DNA of 64,000 nucleotides from Polyangiales bacterium (GTDB lineage: Bacteria > Myxococcota_A > Polyangia > Polyangiales > Ga0077539). The notes beneath the pieces are model-generated. The model worked only from the letters and a program-made list of their open reading frames with translations, did not search any database and was not told the DNA's origin. The stretch's first letter is position 1. Every line of letters starts with the position of its first letter. The stretch spans positions 114,892 to 178,891 of the forward strand of contig JAXLYJ010000005.1 in the NCBI GenBank assembly GCA_046351515.1, given 5' to 3'. Positions 21,391 to 42,288 of the stretch are shown in pieces. A program made the translations under genes and the position numbers.

Positions 21391-22029
21391 ATGGACGAGC
21401 GCCGACCGTACGCGCCCGCTGAGCAGACGGCGGCACCAACATTCAACGCGACGGCGAGCGGGCTCGCGACGGTCGATTCGGCGCGGGCTGCGAGCGACGT
21501 TCCAAAGGGCTTCTCGGCGAGCGAGCGTCGCGATGCGGCGGGGTACTCGCTCGAGTCGCAGCGAACGACGCGCTCGTTTGCTCTCTCGATGCTGTGGCCG
21601 TCGATCTTGCTGCTCTGGGTCATCGGGGGCGCGGTGGCTTCGCTGCGCACCCTGCTCGACGGCGAATGGGGCGGCGCGCTGGCGCTGATGTTGGTGCTGG
21701 TGGCGCCCGTCGTTCCGTTTGTGCATCGGTTGGTGCGACGGTCGTTCGACGCAGCGCGCATCACGTTGAGCGCCGAAGGTGTGCGCGCGGATGGGGGTTT
21801 GTTGACCATCACCGACGTGGGCGTGACGAGCGTCGCGCTGGGAGACATCTTCGGCTTCGCTGTGCAAAACGAGGGCAGCTCGAAGACCCGCGTGATGGTG
21901 CTCACGCGCGACGGCGAGGCGAAGCTCTTGCGCTGCAACGTCCTCGACCGCGCGCACGCGATCTTCGTCGTGACTCGCTTGAACCGCGAGCTGTCCGCGA
22001 TGCGCGCGGCAGGCCACTACCGAGGGTGA
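21391..22029 (+). CDS. hypothetical membrane protein (2 TM plus C-terminal domain, possibly bacterial PH/YdbS-like)
   Basis: Protein-like ORF with hydrophobic stretch LSMLWPSILLLWVIGGAVASL...LALMLVLVAPVVPFV. Paralogous architecture to the next gene. Confidence 0.5.
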   Translation: MDERRPYAPAEQTAAPTFNATASGLATVDSARAASDVPKGFSASERRDAAGYSLESQRTTRSFALSMLWPSILLLWVIGGAVASLRTLLDGEWGGALALMLVLVAPVVPFVHRLVRRSFDAARITLSAEGVRADGGLLTITDVGVTSVALGDIFGFAVQNEGSSKTRVMVLTRDGEAKLLRCNVLDRAHAIFVVTRLNRELSAMRAAGHYRG

Positions 22030-22033
22030 TTCG

Positions 22034-22669
22034 ATGAGCGACGATCCGTTCGATCCTTCGGTGCTCACTGCTGCGCAGGACACCGCGTGGGCGGCGCCCG
22101 CAGCGGACGCGTCGATGGTCGTGCGCGACGTCGAGCAGACCATCGTGATGGAGGGCAGCAGCGAGCCTCCCTCGACGCTGAAGATGCAGGAGGCCACTCC
22201 GCTCGGAAAATTCCAGGCGATCATCGGTGCATCATCGCCCCGCGCGCGGTCGCTGTTCGCGGCGTTGGCCACGGTCGCGGCGCTCGGGCTCGCGCTGGCG
22301 ATCGCGATGGACGGGCCGCGCGGCGAGCCGGTGTGCGCGGTGATGTCGCTCGTCGCGATGGCGTTGTTTCCGCTGCGCGCCGCGTGGTTGTGGGCGCTCT
22401 CGAAGCACGAGCTCGAGCTCAGCGCGACGCGCTTCTCCGCGGTCTCGCGCGGCGTCTTGGGCCTGGTTCGCCACGAGTTCGACGCGCGCACGATCCACGG
22501 CTTCGGCTATCAGCGACACCCCACACGCCCGTGGCGCTATCAGCTCGTCGTGGTGCTGCGCTCGGGATGGACCGCGGCGATCGACATCGCGTGCTCGCGT
22601 CGAGATGAAGTGCGGTTCGTCGCGCGTCGGCTCAACGCCGAGCTCGCGCTGCTGCAAGCGAAGAAGTGA
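22034..22669 (+). CDS. hypothetical membrane protein, paralog of 21391..22029
   Basis: Same layout: disordered N-terminus, 2 TM (LFAALATVAALGLALAIAM...VMSLVAMALFPL), C-terminal domain ending RLNAELALLQAKK (compare RLNRELSAMRAAG). Confidence 0.5.
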   Translation: MSDDPFDPSVLTAAQDTAWAAPAADASMVVRDVEQTIVMEGSSEPPSTLKMQEATPLGKFQAIIGASSPRARSLFAALATVAALGLALAIAMDGPRGEPVCAVMSLVAMALFPLRAAWLWALSKHELELSATRFSAVSRGVLGLVRHEFDARTIHGFGYQRHPTRPWRYQLVVVLRSGWTAAIDIACSRRDEVRFVARRLNAELALLQAKK

Positions 22670-23950: not shown

Positions 23951-24676
23951 GTGCTACACCCTCGGGTCTCGATGAGCGATTTCTACGAAGACGAGGTCGA
24001 GCTGCGTCGGTTCGACAGCGCGTTCGATGCTGAGTTGGCCTTGGAGTTCGTGCGCGAACACGGCGTGCGCGCGAGGCTCAAGGGCTCTGGAACGACGCAC
24101 ATCCTCGATCGGTTCACGACGGTGGTGGACCTGCGGCTCATGGTTCCTGCCGGTGAGCGCGAGGCGGGGATGGCCGCGCTCGAAGCGATGGAGCTCGATG
24201 AAGACTCCGCCGACGAAGCCGCGCAGAAGCGGCTCGACGACGAGGCTCGCGGCGGAGCAGCCTACCGTGAACGCCGTGCCAACACGCAGGACGACGCGCC
24301 TTCTCCCAAGGATTTTCGCTACCGAAGCGGCGCGGTGGTGGGCGTCGCGTGGTTCGGCGGAGCGCATTTGAACGCCCGGCAGTCCGTGCTCGGCTGGTTC
24401 TTGTTCGCCGTCATGTGGACCTTGCTGCTCGCCGCTGTGACCACCGGAAAGCCCTGGCTCATCGTGACCTTCACGATGCTCTGGATCTACGACATCGCGC
24501 ACGGAATTCTGGCGGTGGATCTGCACAACGCCGGCAAGCGCGTCGAGCCCAAGATCCAGCTGTTGCACGGCCTGGCGGTGCTGCTCGTCGCCTCGCTCGC
24601 GTCGATGGCGCTCGTCGCTGTGCGTCCTCCACGCAGGCCCGCAGAAGACGCGATGGCTCCGGCGCCGGTCGGGTGA
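23951..24676 (+). CDS. hypothetical membrane protein
   Basis: Acidic soluble N-terminal half followed by hydrophobic helices (VLGWFLFAVMWTLLLAAV, LIVTFTMLWIY, LLHGLAVLLVASLASMALVAV). Confidence 0.45.
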   Translation: MLHPRVSMSDFYEDEVELRRFDSAFDAELALEFVREHGVRARLKGSGTTHILDRFTTVVDLRLMVPAGEREAGMAALEAMELDEDSADEAAQKRLDDEARGGAAYRERRANTQDDAPSPKDFRYRSGAVVGVAWFGGAHLNARQSVLGWFLFAVMWTLLLAAVTTGKPWLIVTFTMLWIYDIAHGILAVDLHNAGKRVEPKIQLLHGLAVLLVASLASMALVAVRPPRRPAEDAMAPAPVG

Positions 24677-24720
24677 TCGCCGCCTGTCGCGGTAGCGCCC
24701 GCGCGTAGGGTCTGCGAAGC

Positions 24721-25833
24721 TTGCGCCCGATGGCAACAGCACGGCCCAAGCGATATGCGCTCGCGATCGAACTCACGAGCTACTGCAATCAGAAGTGCGG
24801 CTACTGCTACAACGACTTTCGCGAGGACGGGGGCAAGTCCGTCGGCGCGCTTCCGACGGAGCAATTGCTCGCGGTCGTGGACAAAGCGCTGACCGAGGTC
24901 GAGTTCGATCACGTCACGCTCACCGGCGGAGAGCCCTTCGCGCGCTCGGACATCTTCGAGGTCATGGACCTCGTGAAGAAGCACGGCGTGGGTCTGCAGA
25001 TCATTTCGAACGGCGGGATGATCACCGAGGCGATCGCCAAGCGCCTCGCGCCGTACAAGCCGAGCTTCGTGCAGGTCACGCTCGACGGAGCGAGCAAAGA
25101 GCAGCACGAAGCGCACGTGGGCGAGGGGCACTACGACAAGACCCTGCGCGGCATCGCGCTGCTGAAAATGCACGGCGTCACGGTGTGCGGCTGCATCGTG
25201 ATCTCTCGAAAGAACGCGAAGGACGTCGGCGAGATCCTCGATCAGTTTCGGCGGCTCGGGATCAAGAGCGTCGCGCTCTCGCGGTTTTCTCCGTCGGGGT
25301 ACGCCGCGGCCAACGTCGCTGAGCTGCTCCCGTCTCGCTCGGAGATGATCACCGCGCTCGAGCAGGCCGAGGCGCGCGGCCGAGACAACAAGATGGACCT
25401 GCAAGTGACGATGCCGATGCCGCCGTGCGTGATCGAGCACAAGGACTATCCGCACGTCCGCTTCGGCGGCTGCCCGATCGGGACCGAGATGCAGGAGTTT
25501 GCGCTCGGGCCGAAGGGCGAGCTTCGCAACTGCACGCTGCACACGGACGTGATCGGCGACGGACAGAGCGAGTCGTTCGCCGCGCTCGTCGAGAGCCCCG
25601 CGGTGATGCAGTACCGCGACGTGACGCCAGAGTTCTGCGAGCCGTGCCCGCACAAGCGATCGTGCGTCGGCGGCTGCGGCGCCTCTGGGGTCGCGGTGCT
25701 CGGAAAGCAGAACCCGCTCGATCCCTTCGTCGCGCAGCACGTGGACGACGCGTTTCGCGCGCAGCTCAAAGCGGCGCGGCGGGGCGAATCGCCGGTGATT
25801 CCGGCCAATCGTCTGCGGCGCGCCGCGGTCTGA
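24721..25833 (+). CDS. radical SAM enzyme with C-terminal SPASM/twitch domain (peptide/protein-modifying type)
   Basis: CNQKCGYC (CxxxCxxC) 4Fe-4S/SAM motif near the N-terminus. C-terminal CEPCPHKRSCVGGCGASG auxiliary-cluster motif. 370 aa. Confidence 0.85.
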   Translation: MRPMATARPKRYALAIELTSYCNQKCGYCYNDFREDGGKSVGALPTEQLLAVVDKALTEVEFDHVTLTGGEPFARSDIFEVMDLVKKHGVGLQIISNGGMITEAIAKRLAPYKPSFVQVTLDGASKEQHEAHVGEGHYDKTLRGIALLKMHGVTVCGCIVISRKNAKDVGEILDQFRRLGIKSVALSRFSPSGYAAANVAELLPSRSEMITALEQAEARGRDNKMDLQVTMPMPPCVIEHKDYPHVRFGGCPIGTEMQEFALGPKGELRNCTLHTDVIGDGQSESFAALVESPAVMQYRDVTPEFCEPCPHKRSCVGGCGASGVAVLGKQNPLDPFVAQHVDDAFRAQLKAARRGESPVIPANRLRRAAV

Positions 25834-25948
25834 GCGAGCGGATCGAGAGCGGACAACGCGAAGGGAGCAGCGGGCGATGAGCGAAGACGAGAGCAAACGC
25901 GAGCCGAGCGACGAGGGCGAGCGCGACGAGGACAGCGAGGATCGCTCG

Positions 25949-26401
25949 ATGATCTTCGCGCGACGCAAGATGCTCGTCTCCGCGGCGCTCGCGGGCGTCG
26001 CGATGAGCACGGCGGGGTGCGATCAGCTCAAGCGCGCGATCGGGATCGGGGCCGACCCGCAGCCGTGTCTCTCTCCACCGGAGCCGCCTCCGCAGGTGTG
26101 CCTCGCGTATCGGCCGACCGAGCCGCAGGCGTGTCTGAGCGTCCCCATTCAGCCGCAGGTGTGCCTGTCGCCGCGCGTCGAAGAGCCGCCTCCCGACGCG
26201 GGCGGCGCAGCGGTCGATCCGCTCTCGGGGATGCGCGACCCCAACGCGATGCCGTGCCTCGCCGCGATGGACCCGCGTCGCGACCCGCCGCGACCACGGG
26301 TGTGTTTGTCGCGCGTGCCCTCGCGCCCTCGCGCCTGTCTCGGAGCGACGCAGAGCGACAACATGTTCAAGGACACCAACGAGTCCGACGACGAGTCGTG
26401 A
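25949..26401 (+). CDS. Tat-signal lipoprotein with seven P-x-x-C-L-[SAG] repeats and acidic C-terminal tail; candidate substrate of the adjacent radical SAM enzymes
   Basis: ATG 25949 with GAGGA 8 nt upstream (the ORF also opens at 25877 with an acidic extension). RRKML twin-arginine motif, then lipobox STAGC. Repeats PQPCLSPP, PQVCLAY, PQACLSV, PQVCLSP, MPCLAA, PRVCLSR, PRACLGA. Tail DNMFKDTNESDDES. Confidence 0.55.
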   Translation: MIFARRKMLVSAALAGVAMSTAGCDQLKRAIGIGADPQPCLSPPEPPPQVCLAYRPTEPQACLSVPIQPQVCLSPRVEEPPPDAGGAAVDPLSGMRDPNAMPCLAAMDPRRDPPRPRVCLSRVPSRPRACLGATQSDNMFKDTNESDDES

Positions 26402-26460
26402 CCGCGCCGCGCGCTCGGCGCTCTGCCGCTCGCGCGCTCGATGCACTACGCTACCGGTCG

Positions 26461-28707
26461 ATGACCCGTCCCGTGCGTGTGCTGCTCTTGTGGCCAGGAA
26501 CCGACGGCGCCGCCGCCGGCAACTTCGGCGTCCCGCAGCTCGTGTTGCTCGCGACCTACGCGCGCTCGAAGACTGGCGCCAAGATCGACATTCGCGACAT
26601 CGAGACCGAGCGCGCGTTCGGCGCCGTCTCGCTGCCTGCGCTGCTCGCGGGCGATCACGGCAGCGGCTACGACGTCATCGCGCTCGGAGTGTATTCGAGC
26701 TTCGATTACTTGAAGTGCGTCGCGCTCGCCGAAGTGGCGCGGCAGCTCTACCCCGAAGCGGTGATTGTTGCGGGCGGCTATCACGCGAGCGCTCGACCGG
26801 GCGACATCGTGTACGACGGCTCTCCGTTCGACGTGTGCATCGTGGGCGAGGGCGAGAAGCCCTTGGTGACCGTGATCGAATCGGTCGCGGGCGGCGCGCC
26901 GTTGCGTGGAGAAATCCTCGGCCCCGAGCCGGTCGACGTGCTCGACGATCTTCCGCCGAGCGACTGGAGCTTTCTCGCTCGCTACCGGTCCATCGCGCGC
27001 AAGGTCAACTCGCAAGCGCAGGTGTACTTCTCGCGCGGCTGCCCCTTCGACTGCGCGTTCTGCATGGAGCGCGCGAAGCGCGAGGTCTCGTGGCGCGCGC
27101 TGTCCATCGAGCGCGCGGTGCAAGAGATCCGCTCGCTGCACGAGTTTCTCGATCTGCGAACGTGGACCGTCTACATCGCCGACGCGCTGTTCGGGATGAA
27201 GGTCTCGTGGCGCAGGCAGTTTCTCGAAGCGCTCGCGCGCGAGGCGATTCCGGTCGACAAGTTCTGGCTGCTCATCCGCGTCGACCTCATCGACGAGGTG
27301 GATCTCTCGCTGTTTCACCAGGCCAACTGCGGGCTCGGATTCGGGCTCGAGTCCGGCGACCCTGCGCACCTCGCGACCATTCGCAAAGCCGGCCGCCTCG
27401 ACGAGTACCTCGATCGCATGCGCAACGTGTCCGCGTGGGCGAGGGAGCACCAGGTCCCTTGGGGAGCGAACGTGATCGTCGGGCACCCGGGCGAGACGCC
27501 CTCGTCGATCGAGCGCAGCGCCGCGTATTTGAGCGAGCTGTTTCTCGACCCGAAGGGCGTGACGGGATTTCTCTCGGTCGATCCGTTTCGGCTGTATCCC
27601 GGCTCGCCGATCGACTCCGAGCGCGGACAGTGGGAGGCACGCTTCGGCTGCGTGTTTCATCGGCCGGACTGGTGGCACGACGGCGATCAAGAGTTTCTCG
27701 CCGAGTGGGTCGATCCCTCGCGCGAGCTGACGTACCTCGAGCGCGCGCGCCTGCAGCACCAACACTTCGGTCCCATCCTCTCGCGCATCGAGGACAACTT
27801 CGTCTACCGCGGAAAAGCCCGCGAGTACTTCGTTCGCGCCATCCGCGATCAGGTCCGCCAGGACCGCGCGGGCATGCGCATGCACTACCTCGATCGCTAC
27901 TACGCGTGGCACCGCTACCTCGGTCGAAGCAGCAAGGGGGACGCGCATCGCCGCGCGGATCGCCACCTCGCGCAGACCGCGCGCGAGCTGCGAGAGCGGC
28001 ACCGCGCCTCGCTCTTGGAGTACGCGTCTCGACCGGGCGCCGAGCCATCGCGCGCCGCCGTCGTCGTGAGCGCGGTGCTCGACGCGCGCCGCGAGCTCTT
28101 CGTTCCGCTCGATCGCGTGATCGAGAGCGTGAAGGACGAGCCCGTCGCGCTCGACGCGAGCGGCGAGAGCACGGTGAGCGCGATGCACGCGTACGCTAGG
28201 ACCTTCGCGCTCGCGGACATCACCGAGGGCGATCGTGTCTTGGATCTCGGCTCGGGCACCGGCTACGGCTGCGCTGTCCTCCGATCGCTCGTCGGCGAGG
28301 ACGGAGCCGTGTGGGGCGTCGAGGTGGACCCCGCGCTCGCCGCGAAAGCGCAGAAAAACTGCGGCGAATTCGCCAACGTCGCCGTGCGCGCGGGCGACGC
28401 GATCGACCCCGCGCACTGGGGCGTCGAGCCCTCGCAGCTCACCAAAGTGTGCGGCGGATTCGCGCTCGAAGACATCCCCGAGGCGTGGTCGGTCCTGCCC
28501 GAGGGCTGCGTGATCGTCGCGCCGATCGGCGGGTCGGACGAGCAGCGATTGGTGCGCGCGACCAAGCGTGGGCAGCGGTGGTTGCGCGAGCCGTTCGACG
28601 CCGTGGTGTACGTGCGTCGACGAACCTCGGACGAAGTGCAGCCCGCGGTCGCCGCGGCCACGCGCGTCGAGCAGAGCGCGCGCAAGCACCTGCCGATCGC
28701 GACGTGA
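26461..28707 (+). CDS. B12-binding-domain radical SAM protein fused to a C-terminal class I SAM methyltransferase (PCMT-like)
   Basis: N-terminal cobalamin-binding-like region (VLLLWPGTD...VIALGVYSS). CxxxCxxC (RGCPFDCAFC). C-terminal VLDLGSGTGYGCAVL motif I. 748 aa. Confidence 0.8.
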   Translation: MTRPVRVLLLWPGTDGAAAGNFGVPQLVLLATYARSKTGAKIDIRDIETERAFGAVSLPALLAGDHGSGYDVIALGVYSSFDYLKCVALAEVARQLYPEAVIVAGGYHASARPGDIVYDGSPFDVCIVGEGEKPLVTVIESVAGGAPLRGEILGPEPVDVLDDLPPSDWSFLARYRSIARKVNSQAQVYFSRGCPFDCAFCMERAKREVSWRALSIERAVQEIRSLHEFLDLRTWTVYIADALFGMKVSWRRQFLEALAREAIPVDKFWLLIRVDLIDEVDLSLFHQANCGLGFGLESGDPAHLATIRKAGRLDEYLDRMRNVSAWAREHQVPWGANVIVGHPGETPSSIERSAAYLSELFLDPKGVTGFLSVDPFRLYPGSPIDSERGQWEARFGCVFHRPDWWHDGDQEFLAEWVDPSRELTYLERARLQHQHFGPILSRIEDNFVYRGKAREYFVRAIRDQVRQDRAGMRMHYLDRYYAWHRYLGRSSKGDAHRRADRHLAQTARELRERHRASLLEYASRPGAEPSRAAVVVSAVLDARRELFVPLDRVIESVKDEPVALDASGESTVSAMHAYARTFALADITEGDRVLDLGSGTGYGCAVLRSLVGEDGAVWGVEVDPALAAKAQKNCGEFANVAVRAGDAIDPAHWGVEPSQLTKVCGGFALEDIPEAWSVLPEGCVIVAPIGGSDEQRLVRATKRGQRWLREPFDAVVYVRRRTSDEVQPAVAAATRVEQSARKHLPIAT

Positions 28708-28719
28708 AAGGGCGCTGGC

Positions 28720-30177
28720 GTGTCGCAGGACGAGTTCTCGCTGAGTGCGCTGCTCGATGACGAGACCGATGGCGCGCGCGACGGCCTCGTCTTCGAGGGC
28801 GAGCGGCTTCGATGGAGCGAGGTCGCGACGCGCGCCCTGCGGCTCGGAGCCAAGATCGAGCGCGCCAACGGCGGTCGCGCGCGGCGAGTGGCGCTACGCG
28901 CGAGCAATCGACTCGAGACCGCGCTCGCGCTGTACGCGATGTTCGACCGGGGGATCACCGTCGTTCCGCTGCACCCGCGGCTGACGGACGCCGAGGCCGC
29001 GGCGCTCGCCGACGACGCCGAGTGCGCGCTCCGGCTCGACGACGCCTCGCTCGACGCGCTCATTCGAAGCGACGAAGCGCCGCTCGACCCTCGATGGACA
29101 CACGAAATCAAGATCGACCCCGAGGCGCCGCTCGCCGTGCTGTACACCTCGGGCACCACCGGTCGGCCCAAGGGCGCGGTGCTCTCGCGCCGCGCGTTCG
29201 TCGCCAGCGCCCGCGCGAGCGAGGTGAACCTGCCGTGGAGCGCGCGGGACCGTTGGCTCTTGTGCCTCCCGCTCTGCCACGTCGGCGGCCTCTCGGTGCT
29301 CACGCGGTGCTTGTTCGCGAGGCAAGGCGTGGTGCTGCAGCGAAAGTTCGACGAGCGCGCGGTGCTCGACGCGATCGAGCGCGAGGGGGTGACGATCGCG
29401 AGCTTCGTTCCGACGATGATGCATCGGCTGCTCGAGGCGGACTCGCGCGGCGCGCTCGCGGCGTTGCGCGCGGCGCTCTTGGGCGGGGCCGCGACGTCGA
29501 CCGCGCTGCTGCGCGCGTGCGCCGAGCGCTCGATCCACGCGCGAACGACGTACGGGCTCACCGAAGCGTGCTCGCAAGTGAGCACGCAGGGCGAGCGCGA
29601 TTGGAGCACGGTCGAGCTCGGCAGCGGCGCACCGCTCGCGGCGACAGAGCTCTGCGCGCTGCGCGAAGACGGGACTCGGTGCGAGCACGACGAGGTCGGC
29701 GCGCTCGTCCTGCGCGGACCGACGCTCTTCTCGGGCTATCTGCACCACGAGCCTCGGGCGCGCGAGAGCTGGTTTTCGACCGGCGATTTCGGGTTCTTCG
29801 ACGAGCGAGGACGCCTGCACGTCGTGGCGCGCAGGACCGACCTGATCGTGACGGGCGGCGAAAACGTCTACCCCCTCGAGGTCGAGCGCGCGCTCGACGG
29901 GATCGAAGGCGTGCGCGCCTCACTCGTGTTCGGCGTCGATGATCCGCGCTGGGGGCAGGTCGTGGCGTGCGCCCTGGTGATCGATGAGCGATTCTGTCCC
30001 GACCGTTTCGCGGTGAAATGCGCGGAGATGCTCGCGCCCCACAAGCGACCGCGGCTGTTCGCGCCGTGCGAGGCGCTGCCGCTGACCGCGGCGAACAAGC
30101 CCGATCGGCGCGCGGCGCGAGAGCGGTTTTCCTCGCAGCTCGAGCCGGTCCGCTATCGCGCATCCCCGAACCGCTGA
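28720..30177 (+). CDS. AMP-dependent synthetase/ligase (MenE/acyl-CoA synthetase-like adenylating enzyme)
   Basis: AMP-binding motif LYTSGTTGRPKG, TGDFGF...GR, and GGENVYP. 485 aa, 12 bp downstream of the preceding gene. Confidence 0.8.
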   Translation: MSQDEFSLSALLDDETDGARDGLVFEGERLRWSEVATRALRLGAKIERANGGRARRVALRASNRLETALALYAMFDRGITVVPLHPRLTDAEAAALADDAECALRLDDASLDALIRSDEAPLDPRWTHEIKIDPEAPLAVLYTSGTTGRPKGAVLSRRAFVASARASEVNLPWSARDRWLLCLPLCHVGGLSVLTRCLFARQGVVLQRKFDERAVLDAIEREGVTIASFVPTMMHRLLEADSRGALAALRAALLGGAATSTALLRACAERSIHARTTYGLTEACSQVSTQGERDWSTVELGSGAPLAATELCALREDGTRCEHDEVGALVLRGPTLFSGYLHHEPRARESWFSTGDFGFFDERGRLHVVARRTDLIVTGGENVYPLEVERALDGIEGVRASLVFGVDDPRWGQVVACALVIDERFCPDRFAVKCAEMLAPHKRPRLFAPCEALPLTAANKPDRRAARERFSSQLEPVRYRASPNR

Positions 30178-30575
30178 CGCCCCGATGACGTGATGGTTGA
30201 TGCAGAGAGCATCAACTCGCGCCGCGCCAGTGGTTCGGCGCCGCGGCGTACAAGCGCTGTGCGCGCCGTGCGATCGAGCAGCGGAGTGAGCGGCTACCGA
30301 GCTGTGTTGGACAAAGGGGGAGGAACCAACAACGGGGAGGGAGGGACGATGGATGCTCTCGGTAGCCGCTCGCTTCGTCGCTCGATTTGCAGGGCGAATC
30401 GTCGGCGTTGCTTTCACTCTGGCACGCGCGGGCGAAGCGTCAAGTCGAGAGGGAAGCATTCTGCTCTCTCGATGGGTTACAACGGTGCGCGCGTTCGGTC
30501 GTCGTCCGCTGCGAGGGCAGCGATGATGGGCGAGCGCGGATCGCAGCGCCTCTCAGACTCTCAAGGAATCTCCTC

Positions 30576-31679
30576 GTGGATCGTCGTCGTATCGCCATCA
30601 CTCTCGCTCGCGTGCTCGCGCTCGTCGGGCTCGTGGTCTCCGCGGCGCTCATCATCGAGTACGCGATGCCCGAGCCCACGCTCTGCGGTCCCGGCGGCGG
30701 GTGCACCGCCGTCCGCGCGTGCTGGGAGCAGCGCGTGAAGTGGTTTTCTCTTCCGTGGTTCGGGCTCGTCTCGTTCGGCGCCGCGCTGAGCGCGCTGCTG
30801 CTCGTGCCCAAAGACAAGGCGAGCAAGCTCTTGCCTGCGCTGGGGGCGCTCTCTGCGCTCGGCGGCGCGACGCTGATCGCGCTGCAGCTCGGGATGTGCC
30901 ACTCGTGGTGCAAGTTCTGTATGGTGACGGATTCGAGCGCGATTTTGCTGGGCGCGGCGCTCTTGTTCGGCCGCGACGCGTACGAGCCCGCCTCGCCGAC
31001 GCAGCGGTGGCTCTTCGGCGGCGGCGCGGTGCTGACCGCGTGCGTGGCGATGTTGAGCGCGCCCCCTGCGAGCACGGGCGGCGGCGGGACGGGCGGCGAT
31101 TCGTCGCGCGGACCGCGCGCTCAGTACGTCGCGGTCTTGCCGGGGCCGGTCGCGCGCGAGCAGCGCGACGGCGTGGTGACCATCGTCGAGTTCGCTGACT
31201 TCGAGTGTCCGTTTTGTCGCAGGCAACACGCGGTGCTCTCGTCGGTGATCGAGCGCTATCACGGACGCGTGCGGCTCGTGCGCAAGCAGCTCCCGTTGAC
31301 GGGGATTCACCCGCACGCCGAAGACGCGGCGAAGGCCGCGCTGTGCGCAGAGGAGCTCGGTCGCGGCGAAGCGATGGCCGATCGACTCTTTCGCGCGGAG
31401 GCAGAGCAGCTCACGGCCGACGGGACGACGGCGATCGCGCGCGAGCTCGGCCTGGACGAACGCGCGTTTCGCGAGTGCGTCGCCAACGATCGAACGCGCA
31501 GTCACATCGCGAGCGACCGCAACGCCGCGCACGAGTGCGGCGTGCAGGGGCTGCCGACGATGTTCATCGGGCACGAGCGGTTCGACGGCCTCGTGGACGA
31601 AGAGGCGCTTCGCGAGAGCATCGAGCACGCGCTGCACCCCGATGCAGGCGCGGGCGTGAGCAGCGCGGACGGGGGCTGA
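30576..31679 (+). CDS. vitamin K epoxide reductase (VKOR) domain fused to DsbA-like thioredoxin domain
   Basis: GTG 30576 with AAGGAA upstream. TM helices with CGPGGGC and CKFC redox pairs, then a DsbA-like domain with FECPFC. Confidence 0.75.
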   Translation: MDRRRIAITLARVLALVGLVVSAALIIEYAMPEPTLCGPGGGCTAVRACWEQRVKWFSLPWFGLVSFGAALSALLLVPKDKASKLLPALGALSALGGATLIALQLGMCHSWCKFCMVTDSSAILLGAALLFGRDAYEPASPTQRWLFGGGAVLTACVAMLSAPPASTGGGGTGGDSSRGPRAQYVAVLPGPVAREQRDGVVTIVEFADFECPFCRRQHAVLSSVIERYHGRVRLVRKQLPLTGIHPHAEDAAKAALCAEELGRGEAMADRLFRAEAEQLTADGTTAIARELGLDERAFRECVANDRTRSHIASDRNAAHECGVQGLPTMFIGHERFDGLVDEEALRESIEHALHPDAGAGVSSADGG

Positions 31680-33759: not shown

Positions 33760-35301
33760 TTGCGGTATCGGCCATCGCCACGAACCGTGAGCGACAAGAG
33801 CATTGCAGAGCGCGCGAGGCGAGGCGTCGCGGTCATCACCTTCGCAAAAGCCTGGTTTTTGCTGACTGGATTCGCGCAGCCCGTCTTGCTCACGCGGGCG
33901 CTCGGCCGCGAGAACTACGGCGTATACGGAGCGGTTTTGTCCGCGGTCTCGATCCTCAACAACGTGGTGGTAGCGGGGTCGATCCAGGCGATGTCCAAGA
34001 GCGTGACGAGCTACGGGACGGCGTCGATCCGTCGCGGGCTCGCGCTGCACGCGCTGCTCGGGCTGGTGCTCGCGGGGGGATTCGCGGCGCTCGCCGGCCC
34101 GATCGGCGCCGATCTTCTGCGCGATCCAGGGCTGCCCCCGCTGCTGCGCATCGCCTCGATCGTGACGGGGATGTACTGCGTGTACGCCGCGCTCGTCGGC
34201 TCGCTGAACGGAACGCAGCGCTTCGTCGCCCAAGCCTCGCTCGACGTCTTGTTCGCCACGCTGCGCACGGGGCTCATCGTCGGCCTCGCGTTCGTGGGAA
34301 TGGGCGTCCGCGGGGCGCTCATGGGCTTCGCTGCCGCGAGCGTCGCGATCACCCTCGTGGCGAGCGCGGTCGTCCTTCGGTCACCCAAGAGCGAGAGCGA
34401 GCGCGACGCTCCGTTGGGGCTCGCGTTTGCCAGAGAATATGCAGGTTTTTTCGCGCCCGTCCTGGTCTATCAGCTCGCGCTCAACATGGTCCTTCAGGCG
34501 GACGTGCTCGTGATGCAAGCGGTGCTCGCGCGACAAGCGGGCGCGACGCTCGAGGCGGTCAAGGGCCTGGTGGGCGTGTACAAGAGCGTGCAGAACTTCG
34601 CGTTCTTGCCGTACCAGCTGTTGATCGCAGTGACGTTCGTGCTGTTTCCCGTCGTGTCCAAGGCCGCTGCGGAGGGCGACGTCGAGACCACTCGCTCGAT
34701 GCTGCGCGGGGCGCTGCGGTTCGCGTTCGTCGTGCTCGGCATGATGCTCTCGGTGATCGCCGGCGCGCCGCACGCGGTCTTGCGCATCGCCTATCGCCCC
34801 GAGTTCGCGGTCGGGGCGGGCGCGCTGCGGTGGCTCTCGCTCGGGCAGGGCTCGTTTACGTTGGCGGTGATCGGTCTCACCGTGGTGCTCGCGTCCAAGC
34901 GCGTCGCTGCGGCGACGATGCTCATGCTCGCGATGCTCGCCTTCGTCTTCGTCGGCGATGTGATCGCGCTCTCGGTCGTGGGCTTCGGCGAGCGAGCGCT
35001 CAGCGCGGCGGCGATCGGCACCGCGCTCGGCTCGACCGCGGGCATGCTCGGCGTCGCGATCTTTGTCCTGCGCATCTACGGCGCGATCGTCCCGTGGAAG
35101 ACCGCGATGCGCGCATCGATCGCCGCGTCCGTCGCGGGCCTCGTGGGCGCGCTAGCGCCGGTGCACTCGAAGGTGGCCGCGCTCGGAGTGTCCGTGGTGA
35201 TCGCGACGGTCTTCGCGCTCGTGTTGCTCGCCAGCGGCGAGGTCAGCGCTGAAGAGCGCGCGAAGCTGCTCGCGCGCGTGCGGCGCCCTCGCGCTCAGTG
35301 A
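33760..35301 (+). CDS. polysaccharide biosynthesis/oligosaccharide flippase (MOP superfamily, Wzx-like)
   Basis: About 12-14 predicted TM helices across 513 aa, typical of Wzx/MurJ-like exporters. Alternative GTG start 33787. Confidence 0.7.
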   Translation: MRYRPSPRTVSDKSIAERARRGVAVITFAKAWFLLTGFAQPVLLTRALGRENYGVYGAVLSAVSILNNVVVAGSIQAMSKSVTSYGTASIRRGLALHALLGLVLAGGFAALAGPIGADLLRDPGLPPLLRIASIVTGMYCVYAALVGSLNGTQRFVAQASLDVLFATLRTGLIVGLAFVGMGVRGALMGFAAASVAITLVASAVVLRSPKSESERDAPLGLAFAREYAGFFAPVLVYQLALNMVLQADVLVMQAVLARQAGATLEAVKGLVGVYKSVQNFAFLPYQLLIAVTFVLFPVVSKAAAEGDVETTRSMLRGALRFAFVVLGMMLSVIAGAPHAVLRIAYRPEFAVGAGALRWLSLGQGSFTLAVIGLTVVLASKRVAAATMLMLAMLAFVFVGDVIALSVVGFGERALSAAAIGTALGSTAGMLGVAIFVLRIYGAIVPWKTAMRASIAASVAGLVGALAPVHSKVAALGVSVVIATVFALVLLASGEVSAEERAKLLARVRRPRAQ

Positions 35302-38300
35302 TGGCAGCGGCCCACGTATCCGCAGCGAACGCGCTCGCACAACGACCGCGGGCGTCCTGGCCACTCGCCGCTCTCTCTCGCCGACGCGAAGTTCGCTGCG
35401 CTCTCGGCGAGCTGCGCCCTCGCGCGCTCGGGCTCGCTCGCATCGAGCCAGAGCACCGTCGATCGCTCGGGGTCCACGAGCCACACCGCGCCGCGCACGT
35501 CCGCGCCTTCGCCGAGGCGCGTGGCGAGCGCGAGCCGCGCGGACTCGAGCTCTTCGCGCCACCACGCGGCGTCGTTGGCGCTGCCGTCGAGCGCGACGCG
35601 GACGAGCGCGATCGCTCCTTCGGCGCCGCCGATCGCCTCGGCGCGCGCGACGATGTCCACCGAGCACTCGAGCGCGACGGTCTGCGTTTCTCCCTGCAGT
35701 TCGAGTGCTGAAGCGAGCCCTGTCGCGTTGAGCGCCGCCTCTTGAGAGAGCGCGCGGCCCACGCTCATGGCCAGCGCGGCGCGCGCGATCTTCGCCGCGT
35801 GCTCGCGAACGAGCGCGTCGTCTTCGCTCTCTGCTGCGAGCGCCGAGTGAACCGAGGCGCCCTCCTCGCCAGCGACGCACGGCAGCGTCGCTCGCAGCAG
35901 CGCGCGAACGAGGTCTTCGACCCGCTGCCTCGGCGGAGCTCCAGTGGTCCTCTGCTCGGGCACGCCGAACTCGTACCGCAGCGAACACCGCCGCGGGCAT
36001 CGCGCGAACTCCGTGAGCGCCTCGGCGTGCAATTGCAGCCGCGCCGCGCGCTTGCGAGCCGGCTGCGTCGGCGGCGCCTCGGTCGTCGATACGCTCGCCG
36101 TCGCGAGGGCTGGCGTCGGCGCGCTCGACGCGGCGCGAACGCCGATGCTCGGACCGTCGAGGCCTGGTTTGATCACGCGAACGCTCGCGGGCGCGAGGCG
36201 CATGAGCGCGGTCGAGAGCGTGCGCCACTCGCCGTCGCCTTCGTGGGCCGGCCCCGAGACCACGGCGAGGTCTCTCGCCCGCGTGAGCGCGACATAGAGC
36301 AAGCGGCGCTGGTCGTCTTCTTCTGAAGCGTGCGCGTCCCGACGCAGCTCTTGAAACGCGGGCGGCGCGTCGTAGTCCGCGGGCAGCGCGACCACGCGCT
36401 TTCGAGCGTCGATGAGCACGCGTTCGGCGTGGATCTTTCTGCGGCGGGAGGTCTGTGCCACGAAGACCACGGGCCACTCGAGGCCCTTGGCCGCGTGGAT
36501 CGAGAGCAGCTGCACCGCGCCCGAGCTCACGTCGGCGACGTCGACCTCGGTCTCGTGTTCGGACGCGGCGCGCATGCGATCGACGTAGCGAACGAAGCCC
36601 GCGACCGAGCCGTCTTCGCCGCCGCGCCGCGCGGCTTCTTGCGCGAGGCCGACGAGCTTGTCGACGTTGGCCGCGCGCTGCGCGCCGAACGGAAGCGCCG
36701 CGAGGACCGCGGCGTAGTTGCGCTCGGCGAGGGCGATGCGAAGGACCTCGTCGGGCGGCAGCGAGCCGCCTGCGCGCACGAGGCGCTTGAGCGACGGGCG
36801 CGCTTCATCGAGCCGCGCGCGGTCGTCTTCTTCGAGCGCCTCGCGCACGGATGCTGGGGGATCGAGCGCGTCGTCGAGCGTCGCGTGTCGACCGAGCACG
36901 TGCGCGAGGGCGGCGTCCGAGAGGGCCACCAGCGGACCGCGCAACACCGAGGCGAGCGCGAGGCGATCCGCGGGATCGGCGACGAGGCGCAAGAGCGCGA
37001 CGAGGTCGTCGACCTCGCGACGCTCCCAAAATCCCGGTCCTCCGAGCTGCGCGTAAGGAATCCCCTCTCGCTGCAGCGCCTTCTTCACCGGCTCGGTGTG
37101 CGACCACGTCGGGACCAGCACCGCGATCTCATCGAGCCGCGGCGCGCGCCAGCCCGCCGCGTGCCGCGCGAACGGATCGACGAGCTTCTTGATCCGTCGC
37201 GCGATCGCCTGCGCTTCGAGCTCGCGGATCTCGTCGGCGCTGTCTCCCGAGACGAGCACGAGCTCGACGCGCGCTTCTCCGTCGCCGCCGGCTTCAGCGA
37301 CGAGCGCGTCGCGCTTGGGGTCGTAGATGCGCTCTCCGTGCGCGGTCAGGCCCATCCCGAGCAGCGCCTCGGCGACGGGGTTGATCGCGTCGAGCACCGC
37401 GTCGACCGATCGATGACTCTCGACGAGCTCGCGCGAGACCCCGCCTGCGTGGACGATGTCGCGCTCGGTCTCGAGAAACACTCCGACGTCGGCGCTTCGA
37501 AAGGCATAGATCGACTGTTTGGCGTCGCCGACCAACAGCAGGCCCGAAGGCTCGAGCTCGCTCGCGTCTGGGACGCGCGGCTTGTGCTCAGCGTCCTTGC
37601 GCTCGCGCAGGAGATAGAGCAGGTCGCGCTGCAGTCGGTTGGTGTCCTGAAATTCGTCGACCAGGACCGCGTCGAAGCGGCGCTTCCACGCGCGGCGAAG
37701 GCGGGCGTCGTCGCGCATTCCGTCGCGCAGCCGGCGGAGAAGATCGGCGAAGTCGAGCACGTGTCGCCGGCGTTTTGCAGCGCGAAACCGCGCGCGCGCG
37801 TCGACGAGCACGCGGCGGGCGGCGCGGGCGAGCCACGCGGAGTGCACCGCGAGCGCGGCGTCGTGCAGCGACTCGACGGTGTCCCTCGCGGCGCGGGCCT
37901 CGGCTTCGATCGAGCGCGTGCGGTTCTTCGAGGGCAGCGGCGTGGCGCGCAGCAGCGCGACGCACGCGCGGGCGCGGCGAGGATCGTCGACGACGCCGAG
38001 CGACGAGAGCGCGCGAGAGAGCTTGAGCAATCGCGCGGGCCACAACTCGCTGGCGAGGGCTGCGCTCGTCTCGCACGCGCGCGCGAAGCGCTCGATCGCG
38101 TCCGCGGCGATGAAGGGCTGCGGAGGGGTCGCTTCGAGCACCGAGCCGTCGCTCACCTCGTCGTCGCTCACGCCCGCTTCGTCGAGCGAGTGGACCATCG
38201 AGACGAAGCGCACGACGACGCCGCGATCACCTTCGGGGTCCAAGCCGCCCGCGGCGGCCATGAGGTCCGCGACCGCGTCGAGCTCGCCGCGCGCCGCGTT

Positions 38301-38882
38301 CGAGAGCGCCTCGGTGATCGCTTCGCGCAAGAGGCGGTCCGCTTCTTCGGGCTCGGTCACGCGAAAGGTCGGGTCGATCCCGAGGTCGAGCGCGGCGGCG
38401 CGCAGGACGCCGGCGGCGAAGCCGTGAAACGTTCCGATCCGAGCGTTGCCGAGGGCGAAGCCGACGCGCTGCCACGTGGCGCGGTCGGGCAGCGCGCGAC
38501 CTTGCCGCGCCGCGCTCTCACCGAGCGCCATCAATCGCGCTTGCGCCGCGCGATCGAGCCCACGCGAGGCGGCCCACTGCTTCGCCGCGCGCTCACGGGC
38601 GCGAGCGTCGGCGCTGTCGATCCCCGCGGGAGGGTTCTCGTACGAGAGCACTCGAACGGCCTCCGAAATACGCTCGCGCATCTCGACCGCGGCCTTCTCG
38701 GTGAACGTCAGCGCGACGACACGGTCTCCGAGAACGCCTTGCTTCGACCACACCTCGGGGTCGCACAGCCCGCCCACCAGGTGCAGGTAGAGCGTCGCGA
38801 GGGCCTCTGTCTTCCCTGTGCCGGCGCCGGCGCGCAGGAGGGTGTTCTTCGAGAACGCAAAGAGCTCTGCGCGGTCAGTCAT
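35295..38882 (-). CDS. UvrD/Rep-family helicase-nuclease, AddA/RexA-like
   Basis: Walker A GAGTGKT near the N-terminus. UvrD-like helicase motifs. 1195 aa with C-terminal PD-(D/E)XK-like region. Confidence 0.8.
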   Translation of the reverse strand: MTDRAELFAFSKNTLLRAGAGTGKTEALATLYLHLVGGLCDPEVWSKQGVLGDRVVALTFTEKAAVEMRERISEAVRVLSYENPPAGIDSADARARERAAKQWAASRGLDRAAQARLMALGESAARQGRALPDRATWQRVGFALGNARIGTFHGFAAGVLRAAALDLGIDPTFRVTEPEEADRLLREAITEALSNAARGELDAVADLMAAAGGLDPEGDRGVVVRFVSMVHSLDEAGVSDDEVSDGSVLEATPPQPFIAADAIERFARACETSAALASELWPARLLKLSRALSSLGVVDDPRRARACVALLRATPLPSKNRTRSIEAEARAARDTVESLHDAALAVHSAWLARAARRVLVDARARFRAAKRRRHVLDFADLLRRLRDGMRDDARLRRAWKRRFDAVLVDEFQDTNRLQRDLLYLLRERKDAEHKPRVPDASELEPSGLLLVGDAKQSIYAFRSADVGVFLETERDIVHAGGVSRELVESHRSVDAVLDAINPVAEALLGMGLTAHGERIYDPKRDALVAEAGGDGEARVELVLVSGDSADEIRELEAQAIARRIKKLVDPFARHAAGWRAPRLDEIAVLVPTWSHTEPVKKALQREGIPYAQLGGPGFWERREVDDLVALLRLVADPADRLALASVLRGPLVALSDAALAHVLGRHATLDDALDPPASVREALEEDDRARLDEARPSLKRLVRAGGSLPPDEVLRIALAERNYAAVLAALPFGAQRAANVDKLVGLAQEAARRGGEDGSVAGFVRYVDRMRAASEHETEVDVADVSSGAVQLLSIHAAKGLEWPVVFVAQTSRRRKIHAERVLIDARKRVVALPADYDAPPAFQELRRDAHASEEDDQRRLLYVALTRARDLAVVSGPAHEGDGEWRTLSTALMRLAPASVRVIKPGLDGPSIGVRAASSAPTPALATASVSTTEAPPTQPARKRAARLQLHAEALTEFARCPRRCSLRYEFGVPEQRTTGAPPRQRVEDLVRALLRATLPCVAGEEGASVHSALAAESEDDALVREHAAKIARAALAMSVGRALSQEAALNATGLASALELQGETQTVALECSVDIVARAEAIGGAEGAIALVRVALDGSANDAAWWREELESARLALATRLGEGADVRGAVWLVDPERSTVLWLDASEPERARAQLAESAANFASARESGEWPGRPRSLCERVRCGYVGRCHH

Positions 38883-39027: not shown

Positions 39028-42000
39028 TCAACCGCGCTCGTCTCGGCCGCGCTCGATTCGGCAGAGCGACTGCGCGTTGCAGAACTCGCAGTCGCGCGGG
39101 CGCGGCGCGAACACGCCCTGTCGCACCGGCAACACCGCTTTGCGAACGGCCTCTCCGAGCGCGCCCTTTCCCTGAGAGCCTTCGCGCACGAGCGCGTCCA
39201 CGTCGACGATCGGCGCCTCTCCGCCGCCGCGTCGCGGCTTGGCGAGCGAGTCGCGCAGCCCGTGCTCGGTCTGGTCGCGAAAGCCGATGTACACGCCGTC
39301 CACGTCCACGCCCGTCGCGTCCACGCGGCCGTCCCGCACCGCGCGGTACAGCGCTGATGCGTAGACCACGAGTTGAAATTGTGTGTCGAGCGCGCCCTCG
39401 CGCAGCCGCTTGCGAAACCCGTCGCCGCGCCCGCTCTTGAACTCCACCGCGCGCACGCATTCGTCGAGCCGCTCGACGCCGTCGATCCTGCCGCGCAGCA
39501 CGATCGGAACGTCTCCGTCCACCTCCACCTCGAGCGCCGGCCACTCGCGCTCGGGTCCGAACGCGATCTCTGTCGCGACCACGGCCCATCGCGTATCCGC
39601 GTCCATGCGGCCTTCGAGAAAGCCCTCGATCGCGCGGCGAATCGCGACGGTGTCCGCGCGCAAGAGATCTGGGTCCGCGTGCGGAAGCTCGCTCGCGAAC
39701 TTCTCCGCTGCTTGATCGAGCGACTGCTCGACGCGCTCCCAGCGAACCGCGCGCGGTCGACCCTGCGTCCCGTGCAGCGCCTTCTGCCCCGCCTCGAGCA
39801 AGGCGTGCAGCAGGTGTCCGCGCTCTTTCGCGTCGAGCGCGAGCGAGGGCAGGTCCTCGGGCTCGAGCTTGAGCACCTGCTGCGCAAACGCCTTGAACGC
39901 GCAGCGCGCCGTGCGCTCGAGCGAGGTCACGTCGAGCGGCCAGCTCGTCGTGGCGTACCGCGCGAGCTCGAGCGCCTGCAGCGCGCGCGCGTCGTGATCG
40001 ATTCGCCCTGAAAATCTCCCGGGCTCTGCGCGCAGCCCCGCGAAGAACTCCGTTCGTTCGCGCTCGATCTCGGCGCGGCCGATCGCCGATCGAACGCGGT
40101 CGATCAGCGAGCGCGTCGCGCGGTCGTTGCGCGCCGCGGCCTCGGCGACGAGCGCCCGCGAAGGCCACCCCGCCCACGCGCGGGTGAGCCGCTCGGCGCC
40201 GCGCGCCGCGAGCTGCGCCGAGCGCGCGAGCGGGTCGTGCGTGAGCCACAGCGGCGCGCGATCGAGCACGCGACGCACGTCCACCATGAACGGCGAGGGC
40301 GCGAGCGCGCGACCGCTCGCGTCGTGCCGCGCTCCGACGAGGGCGAGGCGCTCGGTCGCGACCGAGCACGCCGCGAGAAACAGCTGCGTCTCGTCTTCTT
40401 TTGCGCCGCGTCGCGCGACGAGCACGCCCGCGCTCTTTTGCACGGCGCGCTTCTCGACGTCTCCGAGCAGCGCGTCGTCCTCGCCGTGCGCAGGAAACCG
40501 CCCGTCCTCGAGCCCCGCCACCACCACCGCTCGAAACGAGAGCCCGGCGACCAGCTCGGCGCACGCCAAGCGCACGCCGCTCGCGCCCGAGTCCGCTGCG
40601 CCTTCGAGCGCGTCGCGCGACGAGTCGATCGCGTCCTCGAGCAGCGCGCTGAACGACTCTGCCGACAACAGCCCCGCGAGCCCCGCCCTGCGCGCGCGCG
40701 GCGCGATCTGCTCGATCGCGCGCTCGATCGCGTCGATCGCTCGCTCTTCGCGGGCCGTCGCGCGCAGCATCGCGCGCTCGATCGAGGCGTCCTCGGCGGG
40801 CAACGTCGCGATCGATCGCGCCGCCTCTGCGTGCCGCACGCCCGCGCGCAGCTCTCGCAAGAACTTCGTCCATCGCCCCGTGTGCTGCTCCACCGTCCCG
40901 TCGTGCCCGAGCGGCGCGACGAGGTCGCGAAGCGCGCTCGCGGCCTGCGCGGTCGCCGGCGAGACGTGCCGGCCGAGGACCTCGAGCTTGGGGTCGAACA
41001 CGGTCTTGGCCCGCACCGCGCGCGCGGCGTGCGCGAGGATCGTCGGCGACTTTCCGAGGATCGCGTTGGGGCCCGCGAGCGCCGCGAGCGCGAAGGTCAC
41101 CCGCTCGACGTCGCCCCCCTCGGCGAGCGCGCGCGCGAGCGAGACGATCGCCGTCGCCGCGCCGCGCCGCTCGAAGCCCTGCGAGCACCGCGCGTCGAGC
41201 CTCGCGCGAACGCCCGCCTCTTCGAGCGCTCGCACGATCGGCTCGACCTCTTCAGCGTCGCCCGAGCGAACGATGATCGCGATCTCGTCAGGATCGACGC
41301 CGTCGTCGACCCATCGCTCGACCTGCGCGACCGCCCACCGCGCGCTCTCGTCGGGCCCGTGCGCCTCGGCGAAGTCCACCGGGGCGCCCTCGACGCGCCC
41401 GCCCGCGGCGATCGCCTGCACGAAATCTCGCAGTCCCGCCGCGGCCAACGCGTCATCGTCGCTGCGCATCGCCAGCTCGAGCTCGACCGCGGACTGCTCG
41501 TCGTCCTCGATCACCTTCAGCGCGCGGTCGAGCGTCGTGCTCCATCGCTCGCGCGACGGCTCGACCAGGACGCGCAGCTGCAGCGAGCCGCCTCGCTTGT
41601 GAAGCGCGCGAGAGAGCGCCGCGATCAGCCGCGCCCTGGACTGATCGAAGCTGAAGCCCGTCACCTCCACCCGCATCGCGCACGGGCCCGGCCCCATCGG
41701 CGCAGGAAGCGCGTCGCCGGCCTCCATTCCGTCGATCGCGCGCGCGAGCACCCACTCGATCGCCGCCCGCGCGACGAGCCCCTCGGCCTCGAGCCGCTCG
41801 TCGACCCACCGCGTCGCTTCGGCCAGCGCGTTGAGCCGCTTGCGCGCGCCCTCTTCGCTCGCGTTGACCTCCGCGAGCGCTCGCTCGAGCGCGTCCCCGT
41901 CGACCGCGTTGCGACGAAGCACGTCGAGCGCGCTCGCGAGCGCCGTCGCGCGCTGATAGCCCTCTCCGCCGCGGACCTTCTGCGCCGCCAGCGCCGCCGA

Positions 42001-42180: not shown

Positions 42181-42288
42181 CGAGCGCGGGGCGAGGGGGC
42201 GCGGCGGCACGACTGCATCCTGCGCAGCAACACCCGACCAGGCAAGCTAGCGACGGACATTGACTGTCACTCAGCCAGGCGCAGCCGC

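Follow-up and report, generated by a model that had tools for sequence, protein, structure and literature searches.

Hybrids between lipoproteins and peptides that ribosomes make and that are modified after translation (RiPPs), termed DAG-RiPPs, were established in 2026 by a study that mined the neighbourhoods of MNIO enzymes alone, and those described are modified only by enzymes of this family (PMC13056109). In DAG-RiPPs such as the lipidated oxazolins and bufferins, the precursor carries a lipoprotein signal with its lipobox Cys, and modification of its remaining Cys residues takes place in the cytoplasm, ahead of export; that cytoplasmic modification precedes lipoprotein processing has been demonstrated, also for a precursor with a repeated Cys motif, and one member of the group is NedA, which is lipidated and has a repeated EGKCG motif (PMC13056109). 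The same authors note that further enzyme families are left to mine (PMC13056109). Here we analyse a 64,000-nucleotide stretch of the genome of a Polyangiales bacterium (contig JAXLYJ010000005.1, positions 114,892 to 178,891; hereafter the window). It contains a gene for a 748-residue fusion between a predicted cobalamin (B12)-dependent radical S-adenosylmethionine (SAM) enzyme and a methyltransferase of the protein-L-isoaspartate O-methyltransferase type (PIMT, or PCMT), preceded by genes for a second radical SAM enzyme, of the SPASM type, and for a Cys-repeat protein. We estimate at roughly 60% the probability that, as comparative sequence analysis suggests, both enzymes modify repeat lipoproteins post-translationally, the substrate in the window being the 174-residue protein encoded between the enzyme genes. 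The three genes would most likely form a cassette that matures a repeat protein anchored by a lipid.

The nearest precedent for this system, which is undescribed in the literature searched, are the MNIO-type RiPP-lipoproteins. A full-text search retrieved no description of either the fusion or the repeat family, and neither has a Pfam or NCBIfam model. The putative precursor has what by eye looks like the lipoprotein signal and lipobox Cys of DAG-RiPPs, and its repeated PxPCL motif parallels that of NedA. Unlike in DAG-RiPPs, where an MNIO is the modifying enzyme, this locus encodes two radical SAM enzymes and a methyltransferase domain, and lipidation is predicted; no DUF692/MNIO family appeared in the Pfam lists of called genes at ten loci, or when the six open reading frames (ORFs) of the window between 23951 and 31679 were scanned with Pfam and NCBIfam. 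Another comparison is with the radical SAM/SPASM thioether systems of the ranthipeptide, sactipeptide and QhpD types, for instance PapB/freyrasin with its repeated Cys...Asp motifs. With these the locus shares a radical SAM/SPASM enzyme together with a precursor, one Cys per repeated motif and nearby acidic residues; it differs in having no acceptor residue at a fixed offset, in the additional B12-radical SAM/PIMT enzyme, and in that the candidate precursor is a predicted signal-bearing lipoprotein of 90-200 residues.

The radical SAM half of the fusion is organised like class B enzymes (TokK, CysS, TsrM, PoyC, Mmp10 and MgmA), with an N-terminal Rossmann-like B12 domain, a CxxxCxxC barrel and a C-terminal helical domain, and two of these, MgmA and PoyC, act on protein or peptide substrates. 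Nevertheless, the similarity is remote (E-values of ~1e-10 against the PDB), the known enzymes have no fused PIMT, and cobalamin use and methyl transfer are predicted for our protein. The other half has the complete PIMT fold, with the SAM- and the Ser/His carboxylate-binding motifs, of PIMT/PCMT enzymes and of RiPP Asp O-methyltransferases (OlvSA, LihM/TceM, ThfM and the imiditide enzymes), and resembles RiPP PAMTs in its context of genes for peptide modification (PMC11285071, PMC13001092). Unlike both the PIMT repair enzyme and the RiPP Asp O-methyltransferases, it is fused to a radical SAM enzyme, and its candidate substrate lacks a conserved Asp. Enzymes associated with lanthipeptides, lasso peptides, graspetides and imiditides, as well as glutamyl lyase fusions, are covered by reviews on RiPP methyltransferases and on PIMT homologues that form aspartimide, in which no radical SAM fusion is listed (PMC11285071, PMC13001092); likewise, a 2025 review of cobalamin-binding domains mentions no fusion of radical SAM and PIMT domains (PMC13331322).

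The frame of the fusion gene is open throughout 26017-28707 (+), with no internal stops. In a window of ~69% G+C, the G+C content at third codon positions (GC3) of this frame rises from 0.60 in 26017-26460 to 0.87 in 26461-28707 and is coding-like only from the ATG at 26461; additionally, the N-termini of aligned homologues coincide with this Met, and the annotation of the source metagenome-assembled genome (MAG) includes a 748-residue protein (P0001) that is 100% identical to the fusion. These data favour the ATG over an in-frame GTG at 26398, overlapping the stop of the repeat gene, which we rejected as a start. A sequence-only reading of this DNA had proposed that a single polypeptide joins a cobalamin-binding-like N-terminus, a CxxxCxxC radical SAM core and a C-terminal methyltransferase (VLDLGSGTGYG), allowing that an undetected stop could make the fusion an annotation artefact. 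The three Pfam domains and the structure model agree with the proposed layout, and no stop splits the gene.

Evidence for a cobalamin-dependent (class B) radical SAM enzyme comes from motifs, domains and predicted fold. In the B12-binding domain, the family-conserved motifs are GGYxxSA(R)P (residues 105-113) and GEGE (residues 129-132), and in 60 homologues the GGY, S-A and P of GGYHASARP, as well as the G-E-x-E of GEGE, are invariant; the homologues score 35-60 bits with PF02310. The [4Fe-4S] motif of the radical SAM core, CPFDCAFC, occupies residues 194-201 (nt 27040-27063), and its C194, C198 and C201 are invariant in the same 60 sequences. No Pfam model matches residues 356-520, a highly conserved and mostly helical extension that includes FLSVDPFRLYPGSPID, WWxDGD and EWVDPS and that is probably a substrate-binding lid. 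An AlphaFold2 model of the fusion built from 60 homologues has a mean pLDDT of 90.9 and a pTM of 0.89, and in Foldseek comparisons with the PDB its first ~500 residues match TokK, CysS, TsrM, AprD4, MgmA and OxsB.

The C-terminal domain scores 79.8 bits with PF01135 (gathering cut-off 20.3; E 3e-22), covering profile positions 20-203 of 210. A PDB profile search from 20 homologues aligned it to the PIMT 4o29 (2e-24) over the whole fold, with motif I, the terminal strand and the carboxylate-binding T-x-S-A-x-H all aligned, and Foldseek matched the last ~215 residues of the model to the PIMT 2yxe (TM 0.85, root-mean-square deviation 2.4 A, 30% identity). Its motifs are T-V-S-A-M-H-A-Y at 571-578 (nt 28171-28194), the SAM motif I VLDLGSGTGYG at 593-603 (nt 28237-28269) and the acidic E621. 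The SAM-binding residues, whose absence would have spoken against the earlier proposal, are present: D595, G597, G599, G601, G603 and E621 are invariant across the 60 homologues, as are S573, A574 and H576. A variable, low-confidence linker leads from this domain to a short conserved tail, in which L744 is invariant across the family; the tail may serve in docking, either to the SPASM partner or to the active site of the fusion itself.

The fusion scores below all family cut-offs in NCBIfam. With the equivalog of the PIMT repair enzyme, TIGR00080, it reaches 84.5 bits for a cut-off of 159 and, therefore, it is not an orthologue of this enzyme. The B12-radical SAM models give 35-63 bits for cut-offs of 250-750, and the resemblance extends, at comparably low scores, to BchE, HpnR and ladderane-lipid enzymes. 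Two RiPP methyltransferase models, TIGR04364 (FxLD; 56.8 versus 320 bits) and TIGR04188 (ATP-grasp; 45 versus 380 bits), were matched at positions 21-197 of 394 and 95-246 of 363, respectively, which correspond to the PIMT-core portion only. With none of these cut-offs reached, the fusion belongs to both superfamilies and yet to no described family.

The fusion is genuine and common within Myxococcota, to which all named sources belong among the more than 120 full-length homologues retrieved (about 60% identical). Among the best 120 database clusters, all members are 725-773 residues long, carry the three Pfam domains and show 59-88% identity, and are named in their source records only as 'radical SAM protein' or 'protein-L-isoaspartate O-methyltransferase'. 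Reference genomes with the fusion belong to Polyangiaceae, Nannocystaceae, Sandaracinaceae, Labilithrix and Paraliomyxa miuraensis. An exhaustive search among representatives clustered at 50% identity retrieved 168 at E<=1e-30; relatives with 33-44% identity are still fusions, all the named ones from Myxococcota. Orthologues with split genes had been suggested as a possibility, and every close homologue turned out to be a full-length fusion; P0213, an apparent stand-alone PCMT half, begins 79 nt from a contig end, with the usual partners downstream, and was rejected as a fragment. P0139, with ~40% identity, is a genuine stand-alone B12-radical SAM relative. The fusion had also been called unusual, which holds relative to the literature but not within Myxococcota.

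Relatives down to ~41% identity have a PCMT domain in which both the SAM and the substrate motifs are intact. A deeper clade (P0133, P0140, P0137, P0135 and P0141) maintains the PCMT-like fold, with decayed GxGxG and T-x-S-A-x-H motifs, and its loci L086 and L087 still contain CL-repeat lipoproteins. Since the substrates are the same, at least one lineage can do without O-methylation in this system and, because the fold was kept, the PCMT-like domain may also, or originally, bind substrate. This is the starting point for an alternative in which the main function of the domain is peptide docking: it would hold the Pro-rich, extended substrate at the disposal of the B12-radical SAM site, in a role like that of a RiPP recognition element (RRE), and the methyl ester would be secondary or absent. 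Extended peptides are bound by PIMT folds, Pfam and NCBIfam detected no RRE or other peptide-binding domain in the fusion or in the SPASM enzyme, and the high pTM suggests a rigid packing of the domains, all of which would fit such a role. However, the invariance of motif I, E621 and the Ser/His motif within the clade of the window, and down to that ~41% identity, is hard to explain without catalysis; moreover, docking and catalysis can coexist. We regard a mainly docking function as unlikely.

The ORF between the two enzyme genes, which the sequence-only reading had described as an Asp/Glu/Pro-rich Cys-repeat substrate, is a real gene, with a GC3 of 0.86, an annotation in the source MAG (hypothetical protein U0269_09230) and orthologues, and its link to the fusion is upheld by comparative genomics in both directions (see below). 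Its product starts with an acidic N-terminus, continues with a signal-like IFARRKMLVSAALAGVAMSTAG-C48, where C48 would be the lipobox Cys, and then shows seven copies of P-x-[PVA]-C-L, with the repeat Cys at positions 64, 75, 86, 96, 127, 143 and 154. Signal, lipobox and CL sites are conserved in orthologues with 46-79% identity, which vary in the spacers and the number of repeats. In general, proteins of this family are 90-200 residues long. Their N-terminus is short and charged and is followed by a stretch that is first basic and then hydrophobic (often ILARRARFVAAAL), by a Cys at the lipobox position and by a region rich in Pro, Asp, Ala and Gly, in which P-x-[PAV]-C-L occurs 2-7 times. The repeat proteins match none of the models in Pfam or NCBIfam, and the scan of the family gave a weak match to LPAM_MltD. 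The elements of a lipoprotein signal (basic n-region, hydrophobic stretch and a lipobox with a small residue before the Cys) were recognizable by eye in 33 family sequences, and the gene call in L085 is truncated and without lipobox. A canonical twin-arginine signal seems improbable for most members, which have RR-x-R-F instead of Z-RR-x-hydrophobic-hydrophobic; the RRKML of the window copy fits better.

The motif is sharply defined: in 124 sites from 29 proteins, every non-lipobox Cys is followed by Leu, and there is Pro at -3 in 114 and Pro, Ala or Val at -1 in 122. Acidic residues are enriched around the repeat Cys, at position -6 (50% of sites, 16% expected) and at +5 to +8 (80%, 53% expected). 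Since none of these enriched positions is invariant, the target of the PIMT half is uncertain. The earlier idea that the PCMT domain methylates Asp or Glu is thereby only softly supported, by the enrichment.

Two groups of proteins deviate from this pattern. In L087 (3278-5793), five tandem deep-clade repeat lipoproteins add a conserved C-terminal helix, ALDRVLARGTLPADVAARLR, which is lacking in the window-type proteins. In L112 (4105-5376) and L114 (3165-4436), a 423-residue protein has the N-terminus of the repeat lipoproteins, ILARRARFV, and a single PQVCLEPPPPPPPP site (PQVCLEPP); no radical SAM genes lie within the flanks of these two genes. The P-x-P-C-L-type motif may also mark larger substrates.

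The partner enzyme displays the motif CNQKCGYC at residue 22 and, at residue 306, the Cx2Cx5Cx3C auxiliary-cluster motif CEPCPHKRSCVGGC. Among solved structures its best match is PqqE (6c8v), over the full length (2e-16), and it is closest to PqqE and other peptide-modifying radical SAM enzymes; with NCBIfam models it falls below every equivalog cut-off and also resembles, at low scores, the heme enzymes NirJ/AhbD. In all related loci with upstream flank, a SPASM gene (350-400 codons) lies directly upstream of the fusion gene, often with a 4-bp overlap, and the products from the nearer loci are 49-66% identical to that of the window. The SPASM partner is obligate.

The same relationships allow another reading, in which the two radical SAM enzymes make a small molecule or cofactor, the repeats being multi-core precursors that release a Cys-Leu-derived unit by excision, in the manner of PQQ or mycofactocin, or the substrate being no peptide at all (a lipid or tetrapyrrole), so that the lipoprotein would not be the final product. 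Multi-core precursors typically have repeated cores and variable spacers, PqqE and NirJ/AhbD-like enzymes are the relatives of the SPASM enzyme, the B12-radical SAM part recalls BchE, HpnR and the ladderane-lipid enzymes, and many loci add a hydrolase of the metallo-beta-lactamase (MBL) fold and a 288-residue protein with H-x-L-A-H and H-E motifs that are possible processing enzymes. Against this, the conserved signal peptide and lipobox argue for an exported, membrane-anchored protein as the product, the MBL and 288-residue proteins are lacking in the window and its sublineage, and a non-peptide substrate leaves unexplained the two-way association with the repeat genes. We consider this possibility improbable, more so than a mainly docking role of the PCMT-like domain.

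Enzymes and repeat lipoproteins are associated in both search directions. Starting from the enzymes, we found repeat lipoprotein genes, in one to five copies, in 22 of 28 evaluable loci. Where the enzyme genes are not contiguous, the gap is filled by one to five small + strand genes; in Nannocystaceae-type loci the repeat gene lies downstream on the opposite strand, and in the deep clade it is just upstream of the SPASM gene, with one locus of 47% G+C and another containing five tandem paralogues. For the reverse direction we scanned metagenome contigs, seeding only on the substrate N-terminus ILARRARFV, from a five-sequence subset because the full alignment was too diverse. Of the 26 confirmed loci, 18 have the SPASM and/or the fusion gene immediately adjacent, limited mostly by contig ends alone; the other eight comprise five true repeat lipoproteins located elsewhere in the genome, two cases of the 423-residue protein and one spurious hit. 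In all, the association spans enzyme identities from 100% down to 33%, three gene arrangements, loci of 47% and ~70% G+C, and the reverse search.

It could still be argued that the repeat ORF lies beside the enzyme genes by chance and that the target of both enzymes is some unrelated housekeeping protein, encoded at another site, given that the fusion is ~60% identical across families, unusually conserved for a natural-product gene, and that six evaluable loci have no local repeat gene. The breadth of the association just described speaks against it, and orphan repeat genes account for the loci without a local copy; we find this explanation very improbable.

Several observations weigh against the modification of repeat lipoproteins by the two enzymes as we propose it. 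No repeat gene was found within the flanks at L009, L013, L014, L015, L023 and L088 (6/28 evaluable loci) and, conversely, orphan repeat genes occur away from the enzymes. Adjacency is, therefore, frequent and not obligate, and the existence of orphan substrate genes explains the enzyme loci that lack a local copy. With respect to the chemistry, the fusion scores 34.2 bits with the B12-binding model PF02310, barely over the gathering threshold of 32.1, and enzymes of the same fold can act otherwise, because ThnL, OxsB and BchE do not methylate and AprD4 uses no cobalamin. There is also no invariant Asp or Glu in the repeat, whose invariant residues are Pro, Cys and Leu, and the deeper clade without PCMT SAM motifs maintains its CL-repeat substrates. 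Finally, the call of a lipoprotein signal comes from inspection by eye.

With post-translational modification of the repeat lipoprotein as the preferred reading, a plausible pathway would have four steps. The repeat protein as substrate, the order of the steps and all of the chemistry are inferred. First, in the cytoplasm, the SPASM enzyme would carry out radical chemistry at or beside the repeat Cys, most likely forming a thioether cross-link or converting the Cys oxidatively in another way; action on Cys is suggested by analogy with peptide-modifying SPASM enzymes. Second, the B12-radical SAM half would perform another radical step on the same motif, most likely a C-methylation at one of the unactivated carbons in the invariant Leu, Pro or Cys. 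Third, the PIMT-like half would methyl-esterify a carboxylate of the substrate, probably of the Asp/Glu enriched at -6 and +5 to +8, and an aspartimide or isoAsp may follow the methyl ester. Fourth, the N-terminal signal and lipobox would route the modified protein to export and lipidation.

A more ambitious and rather doubtful extension of this pathway is that the loci specify a new class of ribosomal lipid-anchored product, in which SPASM chemistry, B12 radical chemistry and a fused carboxyl methyltransferase would together convert each P-x-P-C-L to a Cys-centred structure without chemical precedent. As one example, rounds of radical methylation, such as CysS performs on a methoxy group, could lengthen the methyl ester set by the PIMT half; as another, a methylated thioether or heterocycle could turn the repeat region into a membrane-bound array of metal ligands.

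Table 1. Features of the window and of related loci. Coordinates refer to the window unless a locus is given; residue numbers are those of the fusion protein.
Feature	Coordinates	Strand	Basis or remarks
Fusion gene, 748 aa: B12-binding domain, radical SAM core, helical extension and PIMT/PCMT methyltransferase	26461-28707	+	Pfam, homologues, structure model
B12-binding (Rossmann-like) domain, residues 27-138	26539-26874	+	Pfam PF02310, invariant columns, fold match to TokK/CysS/TsrM/OxsB
Radical SAM core, residues 189-355	27025-27525	+	Pfam PF04055, 50.6 bits
Helical extension of the radical SAM half, residues 356-520	27526-28020	+	Invariant columns, pLDDT >90
PIMT/PCMT-fold methyltransferase domain, residues 534-718	28060-28614	+	Pfam PF01135, PDB profile match 4o29, Foldseek 2yxe
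Conserved C-terminal tail (R/H)-L-P-(V/I/L)-x-x, residues 743-748	28687-28704	+	Alignment; follows the variable low-confidence linker
Candidate substrate, 174-aa predicted lipoprotein	25877-26401	+	GC3 0.86, source annotation, orthologues, family motif
Radical SAM/SPASM enzyme, 370 aa, PqqE-like	24721-25833	+	Pfam/NCBIfam, PDB profile match, motifs
AMP-binding acyl-CoA-ligase-like (MenE-like) gene, 12 bp after the fusion gene	28720-30177	+	Pfam/NCBIfam; membership of the system uncertain
Membrane protein, 241 aa, matching no family; gene ends 44 bp before the SPASM gene	23951-24676	+	Position conserved only in L088 and L089; membership uncertain
VKOR-DsbA/thioredoxin fusion, likely start near 30576	30387-31679	+	Two genes downstream of the fusion gene
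Adjacent small proteins, 212 and 211 aa	21391-22029, 22034-22669	+	Tandem counterparts in L088 (214 and 213 aa)
288-aa partner copies	L002 10227-11093, L003 10211-11146, L001 12246-13019, L087 9229-9654	-, -, -, +	

The three core genes are accompanied in the window by others (Table 1). From 23951 to 30177 the intergenic gaps are 44, 43, 59 and 12 bp, and a scan for promoters and terminators found no terminator signal over chance in the locus; these short gaps and the lack of a signal fit a single operon. The gene order in the sublineage of the window is ~235-aa membrane protein, SPASM enzyme, repeat protein (missing in L088), fusion and AMP-binding ligase. The ligase gene abuts or overlaps the fusion gene only in this sublineage (the window, L088 and L089, with a 4-bp overlap in L089) and is absent from other lineages; its product scores 292 and 316 bits for MenE equivalog cut-offs of 330 and 556, respectively. 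It could be a lineage-specific accessory, such as an acylating enzyme, or simply a menaquinone enzyme.

We discarded the VKOR-DsbA gene as a part of the system, because it follows the ligase only in the window and L088, and not in L089 or in any other lineage; its product might act on Cys-rich exported proteins, and no conserved link to the system was found. Many loci, from most lineages, contain the conserved 288-residue partner (257-311 residues), with an N-terminal H-x-L-A-H-V-P and an internal A-H-E motif and without any Pfam or NCBIfam match, which could be a processing or scaffolding component, and Nannocystaceae-type loci also carry a divergent MBL-fold protein. Both were rejected as parts of the window system, being absent from the whole window even in tblastn searches at E<10. 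For the tandem small genes at 21391-22669, no Pfam match is recorded for the L088 equivalents. Elsewhere in the window, two very large adjacent ORFs at 35295-38882 (-) and 39028-42210 (-), the first of which opens with a UvrD/AddA-like helicase motif (GAGTGKT), look like an AddAB/RecBCD-like pair, unrelated to the cassette.

If our interpretation holds, the system would be a radical SAM counterpart of the recently defined RiPP-lipoprotein hybrids, and would involve a B12-radical SAM enzyme covalently fused to a PIMT-type methyltransferase, a combination that we did not find in the literature searched. The cassette is spread over much of Myxococcota, including Polyangiales, Nannocystaceae, Sandaracinaceae, Labilithrix and deeper lineages of MAGs. 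Since it comprises two enzymes and one putative substrate with a sharp motif, since natural variation exists in the form of a clade whose methyltransferase has decayed, and since at least two carriers are in culture (Paraliomyxa miuraensis SMH-27-4 and Nannocystaceae ST9), any novel chemistry that the enzymes perform on Cys, Leu or Pro is directly testable. It also raises the question of what role a surface-anchored array of modified Cys sites would have for these bacteria.

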